From a virus (Duplodnaviria > Caudoviricetes): 57,079 nt of DNA. The stretch's first letter is position 1. Every line of letters starts with the position of its first letter. A model generated the notes under the pieces. It saw nothing but the letters and a program-made list of their open reading frames with translations. It was not told the DNA's origin and did not search any database. The translations under genes and the position numbers were made by a program. Positions 1,645 to 45,212 of the stretch are shown here, piece by piece. Location of the stretch: positions 1 to 57,079 of the IMG/VR virus record IMGVR_UViG_3300046007_011426; one strand, written 5' to 3'.

Positions 1645-1903
1645 TTATAAACAAGAACTACAAAAAGAACTAGAAAAGAAGTTCCACTCGCCAGAAAAGT
1701 TTTCACAAGAAATCGAGAACCTAATCATAAAAAACCCAGAATATAACTACATCACCGCAATTGTTGAATACTGTGATGCTAATGATATTGATGTGGAACT
1801 AGTCCCAAAATTAATCACTAAGCCACTAAAAGAAAAACTCAAGTGGAACGCGACCGAACTTAACTTTTTAAAGAAAACATCCCTAGGAAAACTCCCTATC
1901 TAA
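1631..1903 (+). CDS. gp33: Late transcription coactivator gp33
   Basis: FSQEIE..YITAIVEYC..LITKPLKEKL..A.ELNFL; synteny with gp59. Confidence 0.9.
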   Translation: MKTFNYKQELQKELEKKFHSPEKFSQEIENLIIKNPEYNYITAIVEYCDANDIDVELVPKLITKPLKEKLKWNATELNFLKKTSLGKLPI

Positions 1904-2484
1904 TGTCCCCCTTTGAAGTTTATGAAATGTATCTGGCCATAAAGATGCATTTCACCCAACCGTCTTATGATTACTTTAAGTATTCTGGTAAGGTCAAATC
2001 AAACATCGAATCATTCAACAAAAGAAAGGACAGATACTTCTTTGAAAAACTCTCAAGAAAAAAGGCCAGAAAAGACGTTTTGAATTATTTTGTTTCAAAC
2101 TTTATAGAATCCTCTGATCCGTCTAAAATGTGGGTCGGGGAAATGAAAATATCTGGTGAGGATAATTACTTAAAATGGAAAGGACGGGTTCATTCTTTTA
2201 CTTATTTGTTTGAGTCTGATTTAAACACCCTAACGGAAGATTGTCATCTTTATGAGGCGATTATTTCAAAATCGGGTCATCCAAAAATTATAAAGTCCTA
2301 TCTGGCCGGGAGAATCTGTTTAGAATCAGTTGTTGTTATGGATGACCTGACGAAGTTTATGAGTAAGTTGCCTGGGTCTTCTGATCCTGTTTTGGAGATT
2401 ATTCGTTCCAGGGTTAGTAAGTACAGACCATTTTTCGTTTATGATAAAGACTCTGTTGTTCGTGTAATTAGGAGTAAAATGTGA
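1903..2484 (+). CDS. gp59: Helicase loader gp59
   Basis: YLAIKMHFT..YDYFKYSGK..RKDRYFFEKL; synteny. Confidence 0.9.
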   Translation: MSPFEVYEMYLAIKMHFTQPSYDYFKYSGKVKSNIESFNKRKDRYFFEKLSRKKARKDVLNYFVSNFIESSDPSKMWVGEMKISGEDNYLKWKGRVHSFTYLFESDLNTLTEDCHLYEAIISKSGHPKIIKSYLAGRICLESVVVMDDLTKFMSKLPGSSDPVLEIIRSRVSKYRPFFVYDKDSVVRVIRSKM

Positions 2485-2897
2485 TGGATTATGAGACGAA
2501 AGCGAAATTAGCGAGGAGTGAAGATACCCCTGTCGAAGTTTTAGAAGAATTGGCGACTGATGAAAATTCTGGTGTTCGCTCCTGGGTTGCAGAAAACCCA
2601 AACACACCACCAGAAACTCTAAAACTTCTGGCGACTGATGAAGATTCTTATGTTCGCTACTGCGTTGCACAAAACCCAAACACTCCAACTAAAACCCTAG
2701 AACTCCTGGCGACTGATGAAAATTCTTATGTTCGCTACTGTGTTGCAAGAAACCCAAATACACCATTAGAAACCCTAAAACTCCTGGCGACTGATGAAAA
2801 TTCTTATGTTCGCTACTGGGTTGCACAAAACCCGAACCGAACCGAACTTATCGAACGACTGGTTCTTATGACCAATTATAAACAGGAGGTGGGCTGA
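2484..2897 (+). CDS. LRV/HEAT-like repeat protein 1 (4 x 26-aa repeats)
   Basis: LATDExxxVRxxVAxNPNTP repeats; ATG at 2484 overlaps the gp59 stop. Confidence 0.9.
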   Translation: MDYETKAKLARSEDTPVEVLEELATDENSGVRSWVAENPNTPPETLKLLATDEDSYVRYCVAQNPNTPTKTLELLATDENSYVRYCVARNPNTPLETLKLLATDENSYVRYWVAQNPNRTELIERLVLMTNYKQEVG

Positions 2898-3310
2898 TGG
2901 ATTATGAGACAAAACTAAAATTAGCGAGAAGTGATGATACCACTATTAAAATTTTAGAAGAATTGGCGACTGATGAAGATTGGGAGATTCGTGACTATGT
3001 TGCAGAAAACCCAAGCACCCCAACAAAAACTCTACAACTCCTGGCGAGCGATGAAGATTATGTTGTCCGCTACTGTGTTGCACAAAACCCAAATACACCA
3101 CAAGAAACGTTAAAACTTTTAGCGACCGATGAATATTGTAGTGTTCGCTCTAGGGTTGCCGAAAATCCAAGCACTCCATTAGAAACTCTTCAGCAACTAG
3201 CGATTGATGAAGATTCCTGGGTTCGCCATCGTGTCTCACAAAACTCGAACAGAACGGAACTTATAGAGAGGCTGGTTTTTATGACTAATTATAAACAAGA
3301 GGTGGGCTGA
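2897..3310 (+). CDS. LRV/HEAT-like repeat protein 2 (4 repeats)
   Basis: Same caps and repeat; TGATG coupling. Confidence 0.9.
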   Translation: MDYETKLKLARSDDTTIKILEELATDEDWEIRDYVAENPSTPTKTLQLLASDEDYVVRYCVAQNPNTPQETLKLLATDEYCSVRSRVAENPSTPLETLQQLAIDEDSWVRHRVSQNSNRTELIERLVFMTNYKQEVG

Positions 3311-3645
3311 TGAATTTTCAAACAAAACTAGAATTGGCAAGAAGTGTTGACACTCCTGTTGAGGTTTTAGAAGAGTTGGCGGCTGATAAAGATTGGGAGA
3401 TTCGTGGCGGGGTTGCTCATAACCTAAATACACCAATAAAAATCCTACAACTCCTGGCGACTGATGAAGATTTTTATGTTCGCGCTCGTGTTGCACAAAA
3501 TCCAAACATACCATTAGAAATCCTACAACAATTAGCCACCGATGAAGGTCATTATGTTCGCTACTGGGTTGCAGAAAACCCAAACCGAACCGAACTTATC
3601 GAGAGACTGGTTTTTATGACTGATTATAAACAAGAAGTGGGCTGA
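3310..3645 (+). CDS. LRV/HEAT-like repeat protein 3 (3 repeats)
   Basis: 111 aa = 137 - 26; same caps. Confidence 0.9.
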   Translation: MNFQTKLELARSVDTPVEVLEELAADKDWEIRGGVAHNLNTPIKILQLLATDEDFYVRARVAQNPNIPLEILQQLATDEGHYVRYWVAENPNRTELIERLVFMTDYKQEVG

Positions 3646-4262
3646 TGGATTATGATTTATACGAATTACTAGAGAATATTGAAGATACTGTTTCAGATGA
3701 TCATGAATTAAAATTGGAACTAGTAGAAAGTGAGGACACGTCATCGGAAGTTTTAGAAGATTTGGCGACTGATAAATCTGATTATATTCGCAAGTGTATT
3801 GCAAAACATCCAAACACTCCAGCGAAAATACTAGAACAATTAGCGACTGGTGAAGATTATGCTGTTCTCGCTAGTGTTGCAGAAAACCCAAACACCCCAC
3901 CAGAAACTCTAAAAATTCTTGCAACTGATGAAGATTATTATGTTCGCTGCCGGGTTGCACTAAACCCAAACACCTCACAAGAAATTCTTCAACAATTTGC
4001 GACTGATGAGGATTCTAATTTTCGCGCCCGTGCCGCACACCACCCAAACACGCCACAAGAAACTCTAAAAATTCTAGCGACTGATGGATTTTGGATTGTT
4101 CGTTCTTATGTTGCAGGAAATCCAAACACAGCACTAGAAATTCTTAAACAATTAGCGACTGATGAAAATTATAGTGTTCGCCATTGGGTGGCACAAAACC
4201 CAAACAGAACCGAACTTATTGAGCGGTTGGTTTTTATGACTAATTATAAACAAGAACAATGA
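3645..4262 (+). CDS. LRV/HEAT-like repeat protein 4 (6 repeats, acidic N-terminal extension)
   Basis: Same repeat and C-cap RTELIERLVFMTNYKQ. Confidence 0.9.
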   Translation: MDYDLYELLENIEDTVSDDHELKLELVESEDTSSEVLEDLATDKSDYIRKCIAKHPNTPAKILEQLATGEDYAVLASVAENPNTPPETLKILATDEDYYVRCRVALNPNTSQEILQQFATDEDSNFRARAAHHPNTPQETLKILATDGFWIVRSYVAGNPNTALEILKQLATDENYSVRHWVAQNPNRTELIERLVFMTNYKQEQ

Positions 4263-5059
4263 AATACGAACAAAAACTATCTGCTTCAAAAAATCTTACT
4301 ACCCCAAGTGAATTATTAGAACTCCTGGCGAGCGATGAGGATAATTATATTCGTTGTTGGATTGCAAGGAACACAAAAACTCCATGTAATGTCCTAGAAC
4401 AATTGGCGACTGATGAAGTTCCTGGTGTTCGCTGTGGGGTCGCACAAAACCTAGTCACCTCTCCGAAAATTTTAGAACTCTTGGCAGGTGATACGAATCA
4501 TGAGGTTCGCTCTCGTGTTGCAGAAAATCAAAATACTGAGTCAAAAACTTTAAAGCAATTGATGACTGATGAATCTCCTTATGTTCGATATCTTGTCGCG
4601 GGAAATCCAAATACATCAGCAGATTGTTTAGAAATCTTGGCAACTGATGAATATTGTGGTGTTCGTGAATGTGTTGCACAAAATTTAAATACCCCAATAG
4701 AATCTTTACGGTTCCTTGTGTCTGATGAAGACCCCATTGTTCGTCAACGACTTGCATCAAACCCAAATACACCACCTGATTCTTTAAAACTTATGGTAAC
4801 CGATAAAAATTGTGTTGTTCGTGAACGAGTCGCAGAAAACCCAAACACATCATCAGAATCTTTAGAAATTTTGGCATCTGATGAATATAATGGTGTTCGT
4901 AATTATGTTTCACAAAACTTGAATACATCACTTAAGGCTCTACAACTTCTGGCGACTGATAAGCATTTTGCTATTCGCCATTATGTTGCACAAAACCCAA
5001 ACAGAACAGAACTTATTGAGCGGCTGGTTCTTATGACCAATTATCAGTCGGCTAAATAG
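4259..5059 (+). CDS. LRV/HEAT-like repeat protein 5 (9 repeats)
   Basis: More divergent repeats; same C-cap RTELIERLVLMTNY. Confidence 0.9.
   Translation: MKYEQKLSASKNLTTPSELLELLASDEDNYIRCWIARNTKTPCNVLEQLATDEVPGVRCGVAQNLVTSPKILELLAGDTNHEVRSRVAENQNTESKTLKQLMTDESPYVRYLVAGNPNTSADCLEILATDEYCGVRECVAQNLNTPIESLRFLVSDEDPIVRQRLASNPNTPPDSLKLMVTDKNCVVRERVAENPNTSSESLEILASDEYNGVRNYVSQNLNTSLKALQLLATDKHFAIRHYVAQNPNRTELIERLVLMTNYQSAK
5052..5058 (+). promoter_or_regulatory. T4-type late promoter (CTAAATA) upstream of gp32
   Basis: Same motif recurs before many structural genes in the window. Confidence 0.5.
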
Positions 5060-39200: not shown

Positions 39201-40410
39201 TGTAATCAATAATACTGGATTTGGTGTAACTGTTGTTCCTTCAATTTCTATAATTTCTCCGGTTGGCGGTGGGGTGGCCGGTATTGCCTCTATGGGTATA
39301 GGTAGAGTCAATGTTGTGGGTTTTGGTTCTGGATACAATTTACCACCAACGGTCACTGTAACCCTGGTTGGCTCATCGGGTGCCGGTGCATCGGTTGTGG
39401 CGGGTCTAGGAGTGACCTCATCGAATATTACGATTACTAACCCAGGATACGGCTATTCCTCAATCCCAACCGTTACTGTCTCTAGTCCAACTCCCGTTTC
39501 AATTGCTTCTTCAATCATTGCTGGGGTTGGTATAACCGGAATTGTTGTAAATAATTCTGGAATCGGATATAGCGGCTCCACTCCGACTATTAATATAACC
39601 TCTCGGGGAAATAATTTTGGTAGCGGGGCCGTTGCAATTGCGTCTAGTCTAATAGTAACCAATGTTTATATTACAAATCCTGGTTCTGGATATACCGCCT
39701 CTGATCTGGCTTCTTTGCCAATCGCCACCTTTAGTCCGACTGGTACGGCTGCTACTGTTGGTTTTGGTGTTAGTACTATTCTTTTGACAAATCTTGGTGT
39801 TGGTTATACGAGTGCTGTTGCTGCGGCAGTCTCATTCAGTGCCCCAAATATTTCTACCGGAACTACGGCAACCGCAACTGCCTCTTTAGGCTTCCCAGGT
39901 ATTCTCCCTGGACCGGGAGTCAACACAACAGGACAGACCAGAATTTATTATGTTGCTTCTGTTTCTCCAAATAGTATTGGAATATCAACCGGAGTCGGAA
40001 TTGGAACCCTTACTGCAATTGATGTTGGAGACGACGTTTTTACTTCAGAACCCCCTATTGCAAGTATTGGCGGTACAGTTACCAATGTTCTTGTGGTTTC
40101 TCCGGGTTCTGGATATACCTCAACAAGCGTCTTGACCGCATCTTCTTTTGATGGGGCCAATACTGGAACCGGATTCTCCTTTAGGTCATCAACGGTTGTA
40201 AATAATTACCAATTCTCCGATGTAATGATTCTCCAATCGGTCGGAAGTGCCTCGACTTCTTGTGACTTTATGGAATATGGAACTATTGCAAATGATGATA
40301 TTATTGGCTCATTTAATGCCGACATAAGTGGCCCTAATGCCAGATTATTATTTACTCCTACTTATAGAAATAATATCATAAAAATCTCTTCACAATCCAT
40401 AACTAATTGA
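36298..40410 (+). CDS. Tail fibre protein with GIGTTxP and GxGY beta-repeats
   Basis: SGRVKK..RYEFLGLDQAEPDLGDP; many TNPGSGY units; Gly/Thr/Val-rich. Confidence 0.8.
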   Translation: MSKLVSGRVKKLPQSGITSDRYEFLGLDQAEPDLGDPVVGPSSIGVNPYTGNISETYVLISDSQGDGNRYWAPQPNVISGGIVNPGSITVRDSGVIVGSVNQITDINFVGSGVTVTSPASWVGSGSSSVDITVAVIDVEVPSGKTGSIGYRDGNSLLQGADDFIYNPVNKNVGIGSTTPKVKLDVLGDANISGILTVNQLKADSAEITNSLKVGNFEIVDNTTFIRIISGSVGVGTTNPIATLDVRGTVNVSGAATFANITAQDVNLDDLTANRITTGYIFSTSGFIGILTSNTINSGNLISTSISATNSSITNLTSVAATVTNFIGTSVTVTGNLQVNNNTLFANSSTTNVGFGTTNPVQKVQVGPSTNPVVITDSSRIGIGTTNPDYNLDVRGNVGFSSFIFINGSSGLANQVLVSGGTGLPFWGAPENITVGAAVSVSIASTQQNDIFYPTFTRQTVNNAIIRVDSTGLVFNPALNYLGIGTTAPTSNLDVVGDIKTNSLSIGIGTTVVNASSNVVSTATTATAVLSSLNTGVFRSARYNVQITCNGQLVANNSSASVSNLQGGSNYLFGIYPNVLLTTSSGSGSDARADIQVTPEKVLPIDSISSGSFNVQDTIGVNVNAPVSFNRLIPATPRENSRVTSITVVNSGAGYTALPSIQIAAPTNNPPILGVTGSGTTATAVVDSLFVSDVSITTPGIHTTIPTVSFKTPVGAGASATGLVGVGVSRVTVTNSGFGYNIFPTVNAESLEAPLEFASLGISTVFLTNFYVQNTGLGYTSSNFPILTIGSPEVGVNTATAVVNSLGVSIHFTITPGLGYTTPPTLTASSPNVGVNTATLTATLGISSITITSPGAGYTSSSQIQISSSPTVTGFAATVGLGVTLTDAIISGGVNYATLPTVTFSAPNVSSGTTATGGFTQLQGDTGVLGGFQITNPGSGYFSIPTVTVSGGGGTGAGVTITTMRVANVVINNTGFGVTVVPSISIISPVGGGVAGIASMGIGRVNVVGFGSGYNLPPTVTVTLVGSSGAGASVVAGLGVTSSNITITNPGYGYSSIPTVTVSSPTPVSIASSIIAGVGITGIVVNNSGIGYSGSTPTINITSRGNNFGSGAVAIASSLIVTNVYITNPGSGYTASDLASLPIATFSPTGTAATVGFGVSTILLTNLGVGYTSAVAAAVSFSAPNISTGTTATATASLGFPGILPGPGVNTTGQTRIYYVASVSPNSIGISTGVGIGTLTAIDVGDDVFTSEPPIASIGGTVTNVLVVSPGSGYTSTSVLTASSFDGANTGTGFSFRSSTVVNNYQFSDVMILQSVGSASTSCDFMEYGTIANDDIIGSFNADISGPNARLLFTPTYRNNIIKISSQSITN

Positions 40411-40411
40411 T

Positions 40412-41785
40412 ATGTCAGTTTTTAGGGTAGGAAATAAATCAACTACATCTAGATTTCAACCAAATAGTGGTTCACCCGTAAGGGGCTCGGTTAAAAATAT
40501 TGTAAATTCTAATTTACAATTAGATTTCCCAAAGGTACTACCCTCACTAGACTTAGACTTTGTTAATTCTAATGTTCTAGATCAGAGAGTCGATTTTACA
40601 AGGGCTTCTGGTGGGTCTTATGTTGGTCCAGATGGTCTTATTAAGTATGTGGGAATCAATCAACCTCGCTTTGATTATGATCCAGAAACTGGGGAATGCT
40701 TAGGATTGTTGATGGAAGAAGCAAGAACTAATTTAATTAATCAAAGTGAAAATTTTAACACCTGGACTCTCCATAGTGATACTGATGAACCCCCAACAAT
40801 AACCAGAAAATTATCCGATGTTAAATCACCCGATGGGGCGAGTAATTATTTTTTATGTACTTATGGGCGAACGGATTTGCGTCGAAGTTTTACTGGAGGT
40901 TTTGGTAGAACATATACTGCAAGTTGTTTTTTTAAACAGCCATTTGATGGAAATGCTTCCGATCTGGCCGCATTTGAAATACACATTACTGGAGGAGGTA
41001 CTACTGTTGCTGTTGGTAAAGTAATCTACAGGTTTTCTACCAATAGAATTATTCGCTCAGACAGATTTGGTATAGGCGTTCCGCCAATAAGAACCGGCTT
41101 TAAAAAGTATGCTGATGGCTCAGTAAGGCTTTGGTTAACCATGACTGATAATGGGTCTGGGCAGGCAGTATTTTTTCTTAATTTAAGGGTCGAAGGTTTT
41201 TTTCAAAATATAGGCAAATCAATTTTAACCTGGGGAGCCCAAATAGAAGAAGGAAACTTTCCAACGTCTTATATTCCAACCAGAGGCTCTGCCAGAACCA
41301 GGGCCGCCGATAATTTTCAAATAATTGGCAAGAATTTTGATAGCTGGTTTAGGAAAGATGAGGGGACAATATTTGTTGCACATAAGGCCCTGACACAATT
41401 AAATTTTAGAGGTTCTTCGGTAAACTCTATAATATACAGCATAGATCCAGGTACTAATACTTTAGGTATTTTTTATAATACTCATTCGGATAACAATGAT
41501 ATATTCTTTTTTGGTTCATTGGGTGGTTCTATAATTAGATTTGAGCAACCCCAGCCATCAAGAAGAAAAGCAATTTTTTCTTATAATGGTCCAAAAGAAC
41601 AATATCAACCATATGTTGATGGGGTAAAAATCACCACAGTAACAGATAAAAATCCATATATAGAATTACCTTATGATAGATTAATTTTGGCCAGACCAGG
41701 AGAAAAATTCAATGGCCATTATCAAAGATTTACGTACTATCCTAAGTCCTTACCTGATTCTCAATTACAATTTTTAACACTATGA
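40412..41785 (+). CDS. Putative lectin-like (ConA/LamG-type) fibre-tip protein A
   Basis: PSLDLDF..FTRASGGSYVG..PRFD.DPETGE.LGLL.E..R.N; WGAQIEEG.FPTSYIPT; YYP..LPD. Confidence 0.6.
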   Translation: MSVFRVGNKSTTSRFQPNSGSPVRGSVKNIVNSNLQLDFPKVLPSLDLDFVNSNVLDQRVDFTRASGGSYVGPDGLIKYVGINQPRFDYDPETGECLGLLMEEARTNLINQSENFNTWTLHSDTDEPPTITRKLSDVKSPDGASNYFLCTYGRTDLRRSFTGGFGRTYTASCFFKQPFDGNASDLAAFEIHITGGGTTVAVGKVIYRFSTNRIIRSDRFGIGVPPIRTGFKKYADGSVRLWLTMTDNGSGQAVFFLNLRVEGFFQNIGKSILTWGAQIEEGNFPTSYIPTRGSARTRAADNFQIIGKNFDSWFRKDEGTIFVAHKALTQLNFRGSSVNSIIYSIDPGTNTLGIFYNTHSDNNDIFFFGSLGGSIIRFEQPQPSRRKAIFSYNGPKEQYQPYVDGVKITTVTDKNPYIELPYDRLILARPGEKFNGHYQRFTYYPKSLPDSQLQFLTL

Positions 41786-42102
41786 CTTATACTGATTACT
41801 TTCTAAAATTCGCCTCTAAACAACAAGCCCTCCAAGTTTTTTCCACAATTTCAGATCATATTAGTCTAGAAAATGAAATAATCGATCAAACCGAACATTT
41901 TGCCATTGATGAAGTTGGTATTCTCTATGAAGACGATGCGGTTTATGATGATTATGGTAATCTAATTACTCCACCTACTAAAATTGATGGGTATCATTAT
42001 AATTATAGAACTCTTTATGGTAACAAACCAGAGATTCCTCTCCCGGTTGAATTAGAACCTTATTTGGTACACCCAGAACCACCACAAAGAACATTCTTTT
42101 GA
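41782..42102 (+). CDS. Hypothetical protein (fibre-associated); stop codon supplied by the IS end
   Basis: ATGA coupling to the preceding gene; ends PQRTFF*. Confidence 0.7.
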   Translation: MTYTDYFLKFASKQQALQVFSTISDHISLENEIIDQTEHFAIDEVGILYEDDAVYDDYGNLITPPTKIDGYHYNYRTLYGNKPEIPLPVELEPYLVHPEPPQRTFF

Positions 42103-42240
42103 ACTACTGTGAAGCTAAAGACTTCGCAGTTTCAGCATTCATAGACTCTTCTATTGAAGACGCCTCCTGCTGTTTTTGTTTAGAGTCCGATTGCGTTCCA
42201 CAACCAGACAGAATATTCAATCCTTGAATTAAAATGTTTT
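42079..42240 (-). ncRNA. Putative omegaRNA/reRNA overlapping the tnpB 3' end, with guide AAGAATGTTCTTTGTGGTGG
   Basis: Hairpin ACTGCGAAG/CTTCACAGT (42106-42130) and upstream TGAA able to pair with terminal TTCA; 5' boundary is a guess. Confidence 0.6.
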
Positions 42241-43312
42241 TTGCCGCATTAGTGTCTCTGTCGTGAACTGTTCCACAAGAAGGACAAGTCCATTCCCGAA
42301 CATTTAGAGGCATAGAATCCATTAAATGACTACAAAAACTACAAGTTTTACTGGAAGGATAGAACCTATCTATCACAACAAGTTCTCTTGAGTTCCATTT
42401 GCACTTATAAGTAAGCATAGAGACCAATGTTCCCCAAGAAACATCATTAATTGCTTGTGCCAATTTATGATTTTTAACCATTCCTTTTACATTCAGGTTC
42501 TCAATACAAATAACTTGGTTTTCGTTAATGAGTTGAGAAGTAATTTGATGTAAGTAGTCTAGTCTTTGGTTAGTTACTTTTTCATACTGAATTGCTAGTT
42601 TGTTTCTCCATTTTTCTCTTGTTTTGGTTTCCTTTTTCTTTTTAGAATGTTGTCTCTGAATGTATTTGATTCTCTTCAGTCTTCGCTTTAGAAATCTCTT
42701 GTTTGGGAAGACCTCACCATTAGAAGTAATTACTAAATCCTTAATTCCTAAATCTATTCCAATACAATCTTCAACTTGTGGTTTTGGTTGAATATCAAAT
42801 TCTCCCTGAACCGAGGCATAATATTTCCCAGAAGGAGTTTTAGAAATTGTTACAGAATTAATTTTAATCAACTCTCCTTTATAATTTCCTTTGAATTTAA
42901 ATGGTTTTTTAAATTTAGGAATAGTAACCAGATTGTTTTCCCAATCAACATCAAAATGTTGAGGCACTCTAAAGGAATACCTAGATTTTCTTTTAGACTT
43001 AAATTTAGGAAACTTTGCTAACTTTCTAAAAAATCTATCATAAGCACCATCTAAATCTTTAATAGATGCCTGAAGGGTTTGAGAATTAACTTCTTTTAAC
43101 CATTCGGTTTCAGTTTCTTGTTTTAAATTTACAAGAAGTTTAGATGCGTCAATATAAGAAAGTTTATTTTTTCCTTGATGATAATTTTCATTAAATATGT
43201 TCAAAAAGTGATTATAAACCCACCGTCTACAACCAAAATGCTTTTCAAGCAGAACAACATCTTGTTGGTTATTTGGATAGATTCTAAGTTTAACTGCTTT
43301 TTGGACCAACAT
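42104..43312 (-). CDS. tnpB: TnpB RNA-guided endonuclease
   Basis: N-terminal HTH (LRIYPN..FGCRRWVYN); RuvC-I GIDLG, RuvC-II IENL, zinc finger CSFC/CPSC, RuvC-III DRDTNAA. Confidence 0.95.
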   Translation of the reverse strand: MLVQKAVKLRIYPNNQQDVVLLEKHFGCRRWVYNHFLNIFNENYHQGKNKLSYIDASKLLVNLKQETETEWLKEVNSQTLQASIKDLDGAYDRFFRKLAKFPKFKSKRKSRYSFRVPQHFDVDWENNLVTIPKFKKPFKFKGNYKGELIKINSVTISKTPSGKYYASVQGEFDIQPKPQVEDCIGIDLGIKDLVITSNGEVFPNKRFLKRRLKRIKYIQRQHSKKKKETKTREKWRNKLAIQYEKVTNQRLDYLHQITSQLINENQVICIENLNVKGMVKNHKLAQAINDVSWGTLVSMLTYKCKWNSRELVVIDRFYPSSKTCSFCSHLMDSMPLNVREWTCPSCGTVHDRDTNAAKNILIQGLNILSGCGTQSDSKQKQQEASSIEESMNAETAKSLASQ

Positions 43313-43332
43313 TTAATTTAATTGCCTAATAT

Positions 43333-43339
43333 TATTTAG
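43333..43339 (-). promoter_or_regulatory. Late promoter driving tnpB
   Basis: CTAAATA on the minus strand, 20 nt before the ATG. Confidence 0.6.
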
Positions 43340-43402
43340 CAAATTGAATACCTTGAGATAAATAAAATATCATTAATCTAAATATTTTAAGATTTTATTC
43401 TT

Positions 43403-43409
43403 CTAAATA
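43403..43409 (+). promoter_or_regulatory. Late promoter
   Basis: CTAAATA about 20 nt before the ATG at 43429. Confidence 0.65.
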
Positions 43410-43428
43410 ACTAATAAAACATAAAAAC

Positions 43429-43836
43429 ATGGCAAGTCTAATTGGCCCAGACCCAAATCAGTTAAGCACTAACGGGATGTTAGGGGAACTTGCATTCATG
43501 AACTCTTCTGGAATTACTGTCCAGTCAGTTCAGTCTCCAGTAGGTATTGCGAGTACAGTTGGGCCAGATAATTTCCCGACTTCTGGTACTGTTAATAATT
43601 TTACAAATCTTGCATTACAACCAAATACCGGAAATGTTATTGTTGGTTCTGGGTCTTCTTTAGGGACAACCGCAACTAATGGATTTTTATGTATCCCTAC
43701 TTGTTCTGGTCCTCCTACAGGAATTCCAACCGGGATTCCACTTGGGGCAGTTCCTTTAATTTATGATACAACAAATAATAGACTTTACATGAGAACTCCA
43801 GGGGGTACTTGGAGATATTCGATAACTACTACCTGA
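43429..43836 (+). CDS. Short fibre-like protein
   Basis: LIGPDPNQLSTNGMLGELAF; TTATNGFLCIPTCSGPPTG..YDTTNNRLY. Confidence 0.7.
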   Translation: MASLIGPDPNQLSTNGMLGELAFMNSSGITVQSVQSPVGIASTVGPDNFPTSGTVNNFTNLALQPNTGNVIVGSGSSLGTTATNGFLCIPTCSGPPTGIPTGIPLGAVPLIYDTTNNRLYMRTPGGTWRYSITTT

Positions 43837-43838
43837 TT

Positions 43839-45116
43839 ATGAGTGTCGATCAATTTCTTCTTTCCAGTGATACAACTGATTTAAATTATCCAGAGATTAG
43901 GCCAACTCTGGATCTAAATTTTGCAAGAACAAAAACATTAGATCCAAGAATTACTTTTACTAGAGCCAGTGGTGGATCTTATGTCGGGGCCGATGGTTTT
44001 ATTAAGTATGCTGGTGTTAATGAGCCCAGATTTGACCATGATCCAGAAACGGGTGAAAGTTTAGGGTTACTTATTGAAAATAATAGGTCTAATGCGATTT
44101 TATGGAGTAGTAACTTTGAAAATTCATATTGGCTAAAACAAGAATTAACAGTTGTTCCAAATGCAACAATTGCACCTGATGGATCTATGACTGGCCAGTT
44201 CATTGCTCCAACCAGGACATTTAGCACACATGCTTTTCGTAAACCTGGAACTACTGGGTCCTTACGTTGGGTATCAATGTATGTTAAGTATGCTGGGTGG
44301 AGATACATTACAATTCTTAGTGATAATCCAGTAGGCGTCGGAGTCTATGATTTATTAACTGGTAGAGGTAATATTAGTTCATCAATTAGTATAAGACCTG
44401 CTGGTAATGGGTGGTTTCGTATTACAAGAAGAAATAACACAACTTCAAATATAGTGATCGCATTTACTGATACATTTTCTTCTAATTACAATGACCAAAA
44501 TAGTGGGGCTACTCCTGGATGGCAGGGAAAACCAACTACTGGAGACGGTATATCTGGTATATATGCCTGGGGATTTCAAGAGGAAGAAAGTGGAAGTTTT
44601 TTTACTTCATATATTCCAACACAGGGTTCGGCCAGAACTAGAACTAATGATGTTGCAACAATAAGCGATAGTAATTTTAGTAGCTGGTACAATCAAAATG
44701 GTGGTACGATATTATGTGAGGCGAATGGCACTGGATCCGTTTTTGAAGACTATAAGTTTTATTGGGAATTAAATTCAAATTCTAATAATTTTAGAATTGG
44801 GTGTAATTATAATAACTCGGATTCCGCAAGATTAGAAATCATAAATAATGGAATTACACAAGCGACATTAAGAGCATTTGGAACAAGTCACACTGAAGAT
44901 GGGGCAAAGTTTGCTTCTATTTTTTCAAATAAGTATTTTAGGCTATCCGTAGATGGGACCTATCCACTATCCAGTAATTCTGGTGCTCTACCTGACGTTA
45001 ATAGACTACTCTTAGGGAGACCTCAATCTGGCGATTATTTAAATGGAACCATATCTCGTCTCACATATTACCCACAAATTCTTCCAGACACCCAAACCCA
45101 GGCCCTCACCCGCTAG
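43839..45116 (+). CDS. Putative lectin-like fibre-tip protein B (paralogue of 40412-41785)
   Basis: PTLDLNF..FTRASGGSYVG..PRFDHDPETGESLGLL; TSYIPT; YYPQILPD. ATG at 43839 preferred over 43809. Confidence 0.6.
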   Translation: MSVDQFLLSSDTTDLNYPEIRPTLDLNFARTKTLDPRITFTRASGGSYVGADGFIKYAGVNEPRFDHDPETGESLGLLIENNRSNAILWSSNFENSYWLKQELTVVPNATIAPDGSMTGQFIAPTRTFSTHAFRKPGTTGSLRWVSMYVKYAGWRYITILSDNPVGVGVYDLLTGRGNISSSISIRPAGNGWFRITRRNNTTSNIVIAFTDTFSSNYNDQNSGATPGWQGKPTTGDGISGIYAWGFQEEESGSFFTSYIPTQGSARTRTNDVATISDSNFSSWYNQNGGTILCEANGTGSVFEDYKFYWELNSNSNNFRIGCNYNNSDSARLEIINNGITQATLRAFGTSHTEDGAKFASIFSNKYFRLSVDGTYPLSSNSGALPDVNRLLLGRPQSGDYLNGTISRLTYYPQILPDTQTQALTR

Positions 45117-45118
45117 AC

Positions 45119-45147
45119 AATATACAACCTAAATCCAAATTTGTCAA
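45119..45147 (-). promoter_or_regulatory. Antisense sigma70-like promoter
   Basis: TTGACA-N17-TATATT on the minus strand. Confidence 0.5.
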
Positions 45148-45154
45148 GTGCCTT

Positions 45155-45212
45155 GTGACAATTTCAACATTGACATATACCCCCTTGACTTTTTTGGCAT
45201 CTGCCCTAGGAT
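45155..45212 (+). promoter_or_regulatory. Degenerate palindromic element with TTGACT-N16-TAGGAT
   Basis: GTGACAATT-TCAA-CATTGACAT; same 39-nt spacing to the -10. Confidence 0.45.

Follow-up and report, generated by a model that had tools for sequence, protein, structure and literature searches.

A TnpB cassette without tnpA at a gene boundary of a T4-like cyanophage: a candidate RNA-guided homing gene

Introduction

How does the gene of a transposon-associated, RNA-guided nuclease come to sit exactly between two genes of a lytic phage, and what keeps it there? The question is raised by a tnpB-carrying insert in IMG/VR virus record IMGVR_UViG_3300046007_011426, whose 57,079 bases (hereafter, the window; estimated completeness 23%) were analyzed in full. 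Oriented antisense to the two late tail-module genes on either side, the insert falls precisely on a gene boundary, with an open reading frame (ORF) of 106 amino acids (aa) upstream and one of 135 aa downstream. An initial annotation, made from the letters of the window, had reconstructed the empty site and placed the target-adjacent motif (TAM) of the nuclease at about TTTAG. It further proposed that this TAM is the reverse complement of a late-promoter core, a conserved sequence that the element would sit beside and target and that competitors could not easily mutate. Here, we describe filled and empty alleles of the locus and argue that the insert is probably a reduced cassette of the IS605 family (IS200/IS605), a candidate RNA-guided homing gene whose left junction formed through microhomology and whose overlap with a promoter is incidental. 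Related loci are given by L numbers and metagenomic runs by X numbers.

Filled and empty alleles of the locus

The empty form of the locus was found in related phages, with the junction that had been predicted. The IMG/VR contig L001 has a 121-aa ORF 65% identical to the 106-aa ORF and keeps the four-gene order (tail protein, small ORF, 134-aa ORF, tail protein) without tnpB. At L001:3338-3389, the homologous ORF ends in RTFF* (...TTC TTC TAA) and leads through TAAATAACTAATAAAG directly into the counterpart of the 135-aa gene. The site is also bridged by two contigs from run X8, one joining 42098 to 43410 via CTAAAT (depth 97.7) and the other joining 42097 to 43410 via GCTAAAT (depth 139.6). 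The first equals the predicted empty site letter for letter up to TAAATA and has one A fewer beyond it, and the second carries an altered last codon of the upstream ORF. The upstream ORF of the empty site terminates in its own TAA, followed by AATA. L001 and the two X8 contigs therefore bear out the empty site as first reconstructed, with RTFF* restored and a CTAAATA overlapping it.

Run X8 also holds the insert (42776-43418, depth approximately 21-28, 0 differences, in a run where the flanks stand at 200-700), so filled and empty forms co-occur. Overall, the insert occupies the site in the window, runs X1-X4 and part of X8; L001 and the two X8 contigs have the site empty. The identical insert copies come from several runs of different studies, and X8 stems from a study other than that of the likely source runs. 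A third X8 allele follows the window to 42100 and continues into unlike sequence without CTAAATA, which shows that the locus is variable among related phages. No joint across the insert was seen in runs X6, X7 and X10, which is not evidence of absence.

The two junctions share a hexamer, as the initial annotation had read directly from the sequence. The plus strand is aacattcttt tgaactactg at 42090-42109 and agattttatt cttctaaata at 43390-43409, with ATTCTT in both. The empty alleles permit seven placements of the 1304-bp insert inside this 6-nucleotide (nt) repeat. We placed it at 42099-43402 because this is the only position that fits both the empty alleles and the conserved right end of the family, GTAGTTCA followed by a pyrimidine (Y). 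Relatives show a hairpin with a tctttag loop, GTAGTTCA and then T or C, with flank divergence starting one base later, in 23/23 loci (20 distinct flanks once the duplicates L005/L006, L024, L044 and L065 are set aside). Two further TTCAT right ends are present as loose ends in runs X8 and X10. The minus strand across the right junction reads ...GTAGTTCAA|AAGAATGTTC at 42099/42098, with TTCAA at 42103..42099, and the guide begins AAGAATGTTC, as had been proposed. The flank at 42083-42098 is assigned as guide because it directly follows the right end, the layout reported for SisTnpB7 of Sulfolobus islandicus, in which the guide comes immediately after a TTCAC terminus (Feng et al., 2024; PMC11043419). 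Other placements were rejected. A right end TTCA (42100) paired with TAM TTTA needs a T matching 43403, where L001 and both X8 contigs have C, and boundaries shifted deeper into the repeat are ruled out by the relatives' right ends, which diverge directly after TTCA+Y. Separately, the right-end terminus TATTAGTTCATTT of L049 is present twice, 24 nt apart, at L049:2698-2735.

Loss of tnpA and the left end

The insert contains no ORF for a Y1 (HUH) transposase, TnpA, anywhere within 42099-43402. It also lacks the family-type left-end hairpin (AAGAAA-stem-tctttag-stem-ATGAAT), for which a scan of the whole window finds the right-end hairpin only. Y1 transposases are likewise absent from the IS1341-type members of the IS200/IS605 family. 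A full element is exemplified by L049 (62% TnpB identity), which comprises TTTAT, a left-end hairpin, a divergent Y1 tnpA with the HUH motif HMHLL, tnpB and the right end; the stem of its left-end hairpin matches that of its right-end hairpin. L048 and several more distant relatives carry tnpB only, yet have a canonical left end. The window instead has 90 nt upstream of tnpB that resemble, in ambiguous A/T-rich alignments, the tnpA-tnpB intergenic region of relatives and perhaps include a remnant of the first tnpA codons. The insert is, in other words, a stripped cassette made of a promoter region, tnpB and the guide-RNA/right end. Having lost tnpA and the left-end hairpin, it could no longer be excised by TnpA, and its left junction is not one that TnpA normally produces.

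The junction repeat points in the same direction. In tnpB orientation, the first 6 nt of the insert's left part (AAGAAT) are also the first 6 nt of the target. Identical hexamers at the fixed distance of 1304 occur at 26 of 55769 positions in the window (4.7e-4), and ATTCTT has a frequency of 1.2e-3 per position. A repeat arising by chance is therefore unlikely, although this is a single case noticed after the fact. IS200/IS605 elements insert without duplicating their target (PMC13565253); the junctions here carry a direct repeat, and the flank reads TTTAG, compared with TTTAA/TTTAT in the family. The suspicion that a 6-nt duplication atypical of TnpA hints at microhomology was thus well founded, and the missing tnpA and left-end hairpin further favor a non-TnpA route or a rearrangement after insertion. 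The repeat and the absent left end fit an event driven by microhomology: a cassette already truncated may have been captured, or the left end and tnpA may have been deleted once a canonical insertion had taken place. The right junction is canonical under both.

A related possibility is that TnpA inserted a full-length element 3' of TTTAG in the ordinary way and that the left end and tnpA were deleted later, AAGAAT being a coincidence or the microhomology used in the process. In favor of this, the right junction coincides exactly with the canonical terminus, a near-cognate TAM lies where TnpA would cut (TTTA at that fixed place has a chance of about 1%, estimated from base composition), and full-length relatives exist in phage-like contexts (L049). 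However, such a deletion must stop exactly at the border between the flank and the left end, and it must leave behind 6 nt equal to the first 6 nt of the target. Furthermore, no intermediate bearing a left end was seen at the locus in the contigs and runs analyzed. We regard this origin as possible but rather unlikely, and retain a left junction made through microhomology as the probable one.

Conservation of TnpB and its guide RNA

The 402-aa TnpB is intact and matches three Pfam domains, HTH_OrfB_IS605 (1.9e-15), OrfB_IS605 (4.6e-24) and Cas12f1-like_TNB (1.5e-24). Residues E271 and D351/D353, which we take to be those of the RuvC catalytic triad, are invariant in alignment A1, as are the zinc-finger cysteines C324, C327, C343 and C346; the motif IGIDLG is present in both full-length rows. 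The closest solved structure and best natural match is ISDra2 TnpB (8h1j, 8bf8/8exa), at E 6.4e-63 over residues 2-365. Comparison with L004 (88% aa and 84% nt identity over 206 codons) gives a ratio of nonsynonymous to synonymous substitution rates (dN/dS) of 0.078, which shows tnpB to be under purifying selection in the sequences compared. Close relatives come from metagenomes, where approximately 25 protein clusters, all full length at about 400 aa, have 78-91% identity to the window TnpB. A protein scan of genome contigs returned distant TnpB relatives only (28-36% identity), and the 75 cultured-phage records with relatives at E <= 1e-40, a number that shows how common TnpB genes are in phages, all fall below 60% identity. 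Thus, no close cellular or cultured source of tnpB was found in the genome contigs scanned or among the cultured-phage records.

The 3' end of tnpB overlaps a conserved structured RNA that ends at the right end, as expected of an omega-RNA. RNAalifold of six right-end sequences gave 60 consensus pairs, 18 of them with compensatory changes, including a long-range helix between the terminal GUUCAU and an upstream AUGGAC. The single-sequence fold has a z of -2.31. Furthermore, synonymous divergence from L004 falls to 0.48 in the last 72 tnpB codons (42099-42320) versus 1.34 upstream, as expected if an overlapping guide-RNA scaffold constrains silent sites. Rfam has no family for the region and returned only a chance snoRNA match at E = 1.

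These features bear on whether the cassette is an inert relic that no longer cuts and is merely carried along. Besides the missing tnpA and left-end hairpin, such a reading could appeal to three blemishes: a C.A mismatch in the terminal hairpin, a last right-end base that differs from that of the relatives, and a non-family base at position -1 of the TAM. The low dN/dS, the intact ORF with its conserved motifs, the covarying RNA structure, the late-type box of its own (see below) and the identical copies in runs from different studies all speak for a working gene, and we consider an inert relic improbable. One blemish may have another cause. Because of the final A of the right end, the upstream ORF has TTT (Phe) instead of TTA (Leu) as its last codon, and selection to keep RTFF is a possible reason for it.

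The TAM position and the target

The pentamer preceding the target in the empty allele, TTTAG, was compared with the left flanks of relatives. All nine relatives with a canonical left end have TTTAA (L031, L033, L037, L050 and L052) or TTTAT (L048, L049, L051 and L060) 17-20 nt 5' of the left-end hairpin, and among sister copies (L050 versus L052; L031, L033 and L037) the homology begins at the TTTAA pentamer. Both words have precedents. TTTAA is a functional TAM of SisTnpB7 (Feng et al., 2024; PMC11043419) as well as the IS605 target (PMC13565253), and TTTAT is the measured TAM of ISGst2 TnpB2 (PMC10055086). The TAM of about TTTAG put forward in the initial annotation is therefore upheld in its first four bases, which fit the motif of the nine relatives, and is left without a match at its G, which may make for a weak TAM. 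Strictly, the rule that the left flank equals the TAM does not apply here, because the left junction is not a TnpA product. Still, TTTA at exactly this place suggests that the TAM guided the choice of this site in the past or serves at it to this day.

The late-promoter box and the question of promoter targeting

The CTAAATA next to the insert is a real late-promoter-like box, as originally claimed. Within the 60 nt preceding the 49 called genes, TAAATA is the most enriched hexamer (present before 12 of them versus 1.5 expected), and 6 of the 13 CTAAATA sites in the window lie upstream of starts (0.3 expected), although the total number of sites is not raised (13 versus 14.4 expected). An extended box, (C/A)TAAATAGT, i.e., (C/A)TAAATA(G)T, lies 12-37 nt before eight gene starts. 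This fits T4-type late promoters, in which a TATAAATA-like box precedes late genes by a fixed short distance. The TAAATA enrichment is in line with the NATAAATA late promoter reported from cyanomyoviruses (PMC2984593), and the 135-aa gene therefore very probably has its late promoter in the box at 43403-43409. A second CTAAATA is likely to be tnpB's own late-type promoter. L003, L047, L048 and L049 have GTATAAATAA or GCATAAATAA (G[TC]ATAAATAA) at the matching place.

Does the element then aim at late promoters? In that scenario, the TAM was selected as the complement of the promoter, so that the element lands by late promoters and cuts sites that rivals cannot mutate without losing late transcription. 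TTTAG indeed complements the CTAAA of a CTAAATA 20 nt before the 135-aa gene, and boxes of this type are strongly enriched upstream of genes. A second case is L049, whose TAM TTTAT complements the ATAAA of ATAAATAAATAA approximately 35 nt upstream of a divergent tail-fibre-like gene. Of the TTTA[ATG] sites in the window, 46 of 939 read TATTTAN, and among the intergenic ones 11 of 100 do, so that two such cases together would have a chance near 0.01.

Several observations argue against this scenario. The two cases were chosen after the fact, and of the 10 loci whose left flank is readable, just two, the window and L049, have TATTTAN. The 88% relative L004, oriented like the gp14 gene (neck protein), directly adjoins the start codon of that gene, which is not a promoter complement; among the 79 empty gp14 sites, one, that of L132, has TTTAT|G at this point. 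TTTA[ATG] is also a common word, with the 939 sites in the window alone, and a rival could escape by changes in the 16-nt target instead. For example, the GCTAAAT joint of X8 places another base beside the TAM, and the third X8 allele is unlike the window from 42100. Moreover, the complement CTAAA covers only the four bases TAAA of the TAAATA core, and calling the TAM the reverse complement of that core was an overstatement. Since IS605-type elements have TTTAA and TTTAT as targets in Sulfolobus, Helicobacter and Geobacillus (PMC11043419, PMC13565253, PMC10055086), the motif predates any phage promoter, and we see the TAM word as a long-standing trait of the IS605 family. That targeting of an immutable late promoter has evolved is thus not borne out, and we consider it quite unlikely.

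The positions of the insertions offer another explanation. The window, L004 and L003 insertions all lie exactly at gene boundaries: the window right end provides the TGA with which the convergent ORF stops, and in L004:620-630 (gp14) and L003:1427-1437 the right-end TTCAT abuts a G and rebuilds the ATG of the next gene. Since the TAM word is A/T-rich and insertions in packed phage genomes survive only at gene boundaries, where late promoters lie, the overlap between TAM and promoter would be incidental. Another gene-boundary site is seen at L048:150-235, where the insertion follows a terminator-like hairpin and T-run (TTTTAT flank).

A proposed homing route and its weak points

Taken as an RNA-guided homing gene, the cassette could operate as follows. 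TnpB would be made late, from its own CTAAATA box, and would bind an RNA whose transcription runs through the 3' end of tnpB and on into the flank; its guide (AAGAATGTTC...) would match the final codons of the 106-aa ORF. An allele already filled would be protected, since TTCAA rather than a TAM precedes the target there; in SisTnpB7, mutating the TAM to the right-end pentamer abolished cleavage (PMC11043419). In a mixed infection, TnpB would cut the empty allele next to TTTAG, and T4-type phage recombination would then copy the cassette into the cut allele. A comparable process is on record in bacteria, where TnpB homing copies an element back at vacant sites (PMC10055086). The cassette would thereby act as a free-standing RNA-guided homing nuclease gene with no need of TnpA, and the AAGAAT repeat of its left junction would reflect microhomology, whether in capture of the cassette or in loss of the left end and tnpA. 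Its expression, cleavage and homing are inferred.

Several points weigh against this account. TTTAG matches the family motif at 4/5 bases, and G at -1 occurs in 0/9 relatives; for SisTnpB7, position -1 ranked second by how strongly changes there affected cleavage (PMC11043419), and high sensitivity to mutations of the TAM is reported for ISGst2 TnpB2 (PMC10055086). TTTAG could thus be a weak TAM, with empty alleles cut poorly or not at all. The C.A mismatch of the terminal hairpin and the final A of the right end (T or C in relatives), which breaks a predicted A-U pair, count against a fully functional RNA. The A/T-rich left remnant aligns ambiguously to L003, L047, L048 and L049, which makes the truncation point uncertain. 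The X8 joints have only 24 letters on their shorter side, and the empty alleles come from non-isogenic strains (X8 flanks 90-95% like the window; L001 about 65% at the protein level). Finally, 2 of the 3 T4-like contexts with left-flank information put the TAM inside a TAAATA-type word, against a null of approximately 11%. The two TATTTAN cases in phage contexts are suggestive, in a sample of two. They leave room for a bolder idea, to which we give little credence: that an IS605 lineage in T4-like cyanophages has turned into a TnpA-independent, free-standing, late-transcribed RNA-guided homing nuclease whose TAM (TTTAW/TTTAG) complements the start of WTAAATA, with late promoters at gene boundaries serving as both landing pads and hard-to-change TAMs.

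Comparison with known systems

The cassette shares with IS605-type TTTAA/TTCAC elements such as SisTnpB7 (PMC11043419) a TTTAA-like motif, a TTCAY end, a guide directly after the end pentamer and, as proposed here, protection of the filled site from self-cleavage by that pentamer. SisTnpB7 resides in an archaeon, whereas the cassette is in a T4-like cyanophage, is flanked by TTTAG, ends in A and lacks tnpA and the left-end hairpin. ISGst2 TnpB2 of Geobacillus stearothermophilus is an RNA-guided homing nuclease with TAM TTTAT that restores its element at vacant sites via recombination (Meers et al., 2023; PMC10055086). It belongs to a complete insertion sequence with TnpA in a bacterial chromosome, whereas the cassette is predicted not to be excisable by TnpA and would home between co-infecting phages. 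ISDra2 TnpB has the same domain order as the window TnpB but a different TAM, TTGAT (PMC13565253), from the TTTAA/TTTAT of the window family.

The free-standing homing endonuclease genes of T4-like phages (Seg and Mob; intronless homing) offer another parallel. Like them, the cassette is a small nuclease gene that lies between conserved late genes, varies in presence from one related phage to another and has a late-type promoter of its own. In Seg and Mob, the protein alone recognizes the site, whereas recognition by the cassette would use a guide RNA and a 5-nt motif. The homing activity of TnpB has been described in print, as has the parallel to homing endonuclease genes of phages (PMC10055086; PMC13565253), and freshwater cyanophage tnpB is discussed in a 2026 preprint (10.64898/2026.02.14.705889). 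Since phage-borne TnpB genes, the TAMs TTTAA/TTTAT and homing by TnpB had all been published, the advance is modest. A literature search of limited coverage found neither a TnpA-less TnpB cassette in a T4-like cyanophage nor a link between TAM and late promoter.

For a TnpB cassette of a lytic T4-like phage, the locus offers a pair of alleles, one filled and one empty, as they occur in nature; guide, TAM position and target can be read from them directly. The pair makes testable the idea that a TnpB without transposase spreads between co-infecting phages like a homing nuclease gene. Furthermore, the likeness of the right-end pentamer to the TAM lets insertions rebuild a neighbor's start or stop codon, which may explain their survival at gene boundaries in tightly packed phage genomes.

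Genomic context

The features of the locus are collected in Table 1. We read the window as part of a freshwater T4-like cyanophage (cyanomyovirus). Its genes lie mostly on the plus strand and include those for a baseplate hub/tail lysozyme, tail proteins, a helicase and an RNA ligase, and the runs holding the stretch are labeled as lake-water or freshwater metagenomes. Among cultured phages, the 106-aa ORF has relatives only in the T4-like cyanomyoviruses S-TIM54 and S-WAM2 (39-40% identity), the 135-aa ORF has no match by tblastn, and a megablast of 40400-45200 gave zero matches.

Table 1. Coordinates of the insert, its parts and the adjoining features in the window.
Feature	Position	Strand	Remarks
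Whole insert	42099-43402	-	1304 bp; left remnant, tnpB, omega-RNA/right end
tnpB ORF	42104-43312	-	402 aa, intact; three Pfam domains, above cut-offs
Left part of insert	43313-43402	-	90 nt; possible tnpA-tnpB intergenic remnant and, doubtfully, first tnpA codons; no canonical left-end hairpin (compared with full element L049)
Predicted omega-RNA scaffold region	42099-42338	-	Overlaps tnpB 3' end; extent is the 240 nt examined
Right-end terminal hairpin	42107-42129	-	CTGCGAAG-TCTTTAG-CTTCACAG; one C.A mismatch; covaries in relatives with tctttag loop
Right-end terminal pentamer TTCAA	42099-42103	-	TTCAT or TTCAC in relatives
Guide-encoding flank (target in empty allele)	42083-42098	-	First 16 nt AAGAATGTTCTTTGTG; antisense to last codons of ORF 41782-42102
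TTTAG, pentamer at TAM position of empty allele	43403-43407	-	Family motif TTTAA/TTTAT
ATTCTT, right copy of junction repeat	42093-42098	+	Native target sequence; also in empty alleles
ATTCTT, left copy of junction repeat	43397-43402	+	First 6 nt of insert in tnpB orientation
CTAAATA, late-promoter-like box of gene 43429-43836	43403-43409	+	Intact after insertion; 20 nt before 135-aa gene
CTAAATA box	43333-43339	-	21 nt upstream of tnpB start
Upstream 106-aa ORF	41782-42102	+	phrog_18574; ends RTFF* (TTT TGA); TGA now from insert right end
Downstream 135-aa ORF	43429-43836	+	Adjoins 106-aa ORF directly in empty alleles

The insert is flanked by two paralogous tail-protein genes, 40412-41785 and 43839-45116 (both phrog_5939, E about 1e-75), each of which is paired with a small ORF. 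Elsewhere in the window, 1903-5059 holds a series of small same-strand genes in which the 60 nt preceding each start are near-identical, with the words CCGAACTTA, TTATGAC and GTGGGCTG enriched before starts; this region looks like a tandem array of paralogues. The phage contig L003 has a repeat of approximately 50 nt upstream of two different genes (L003:1-50 and L003:1905-1960), which may be a shared regulatory region.

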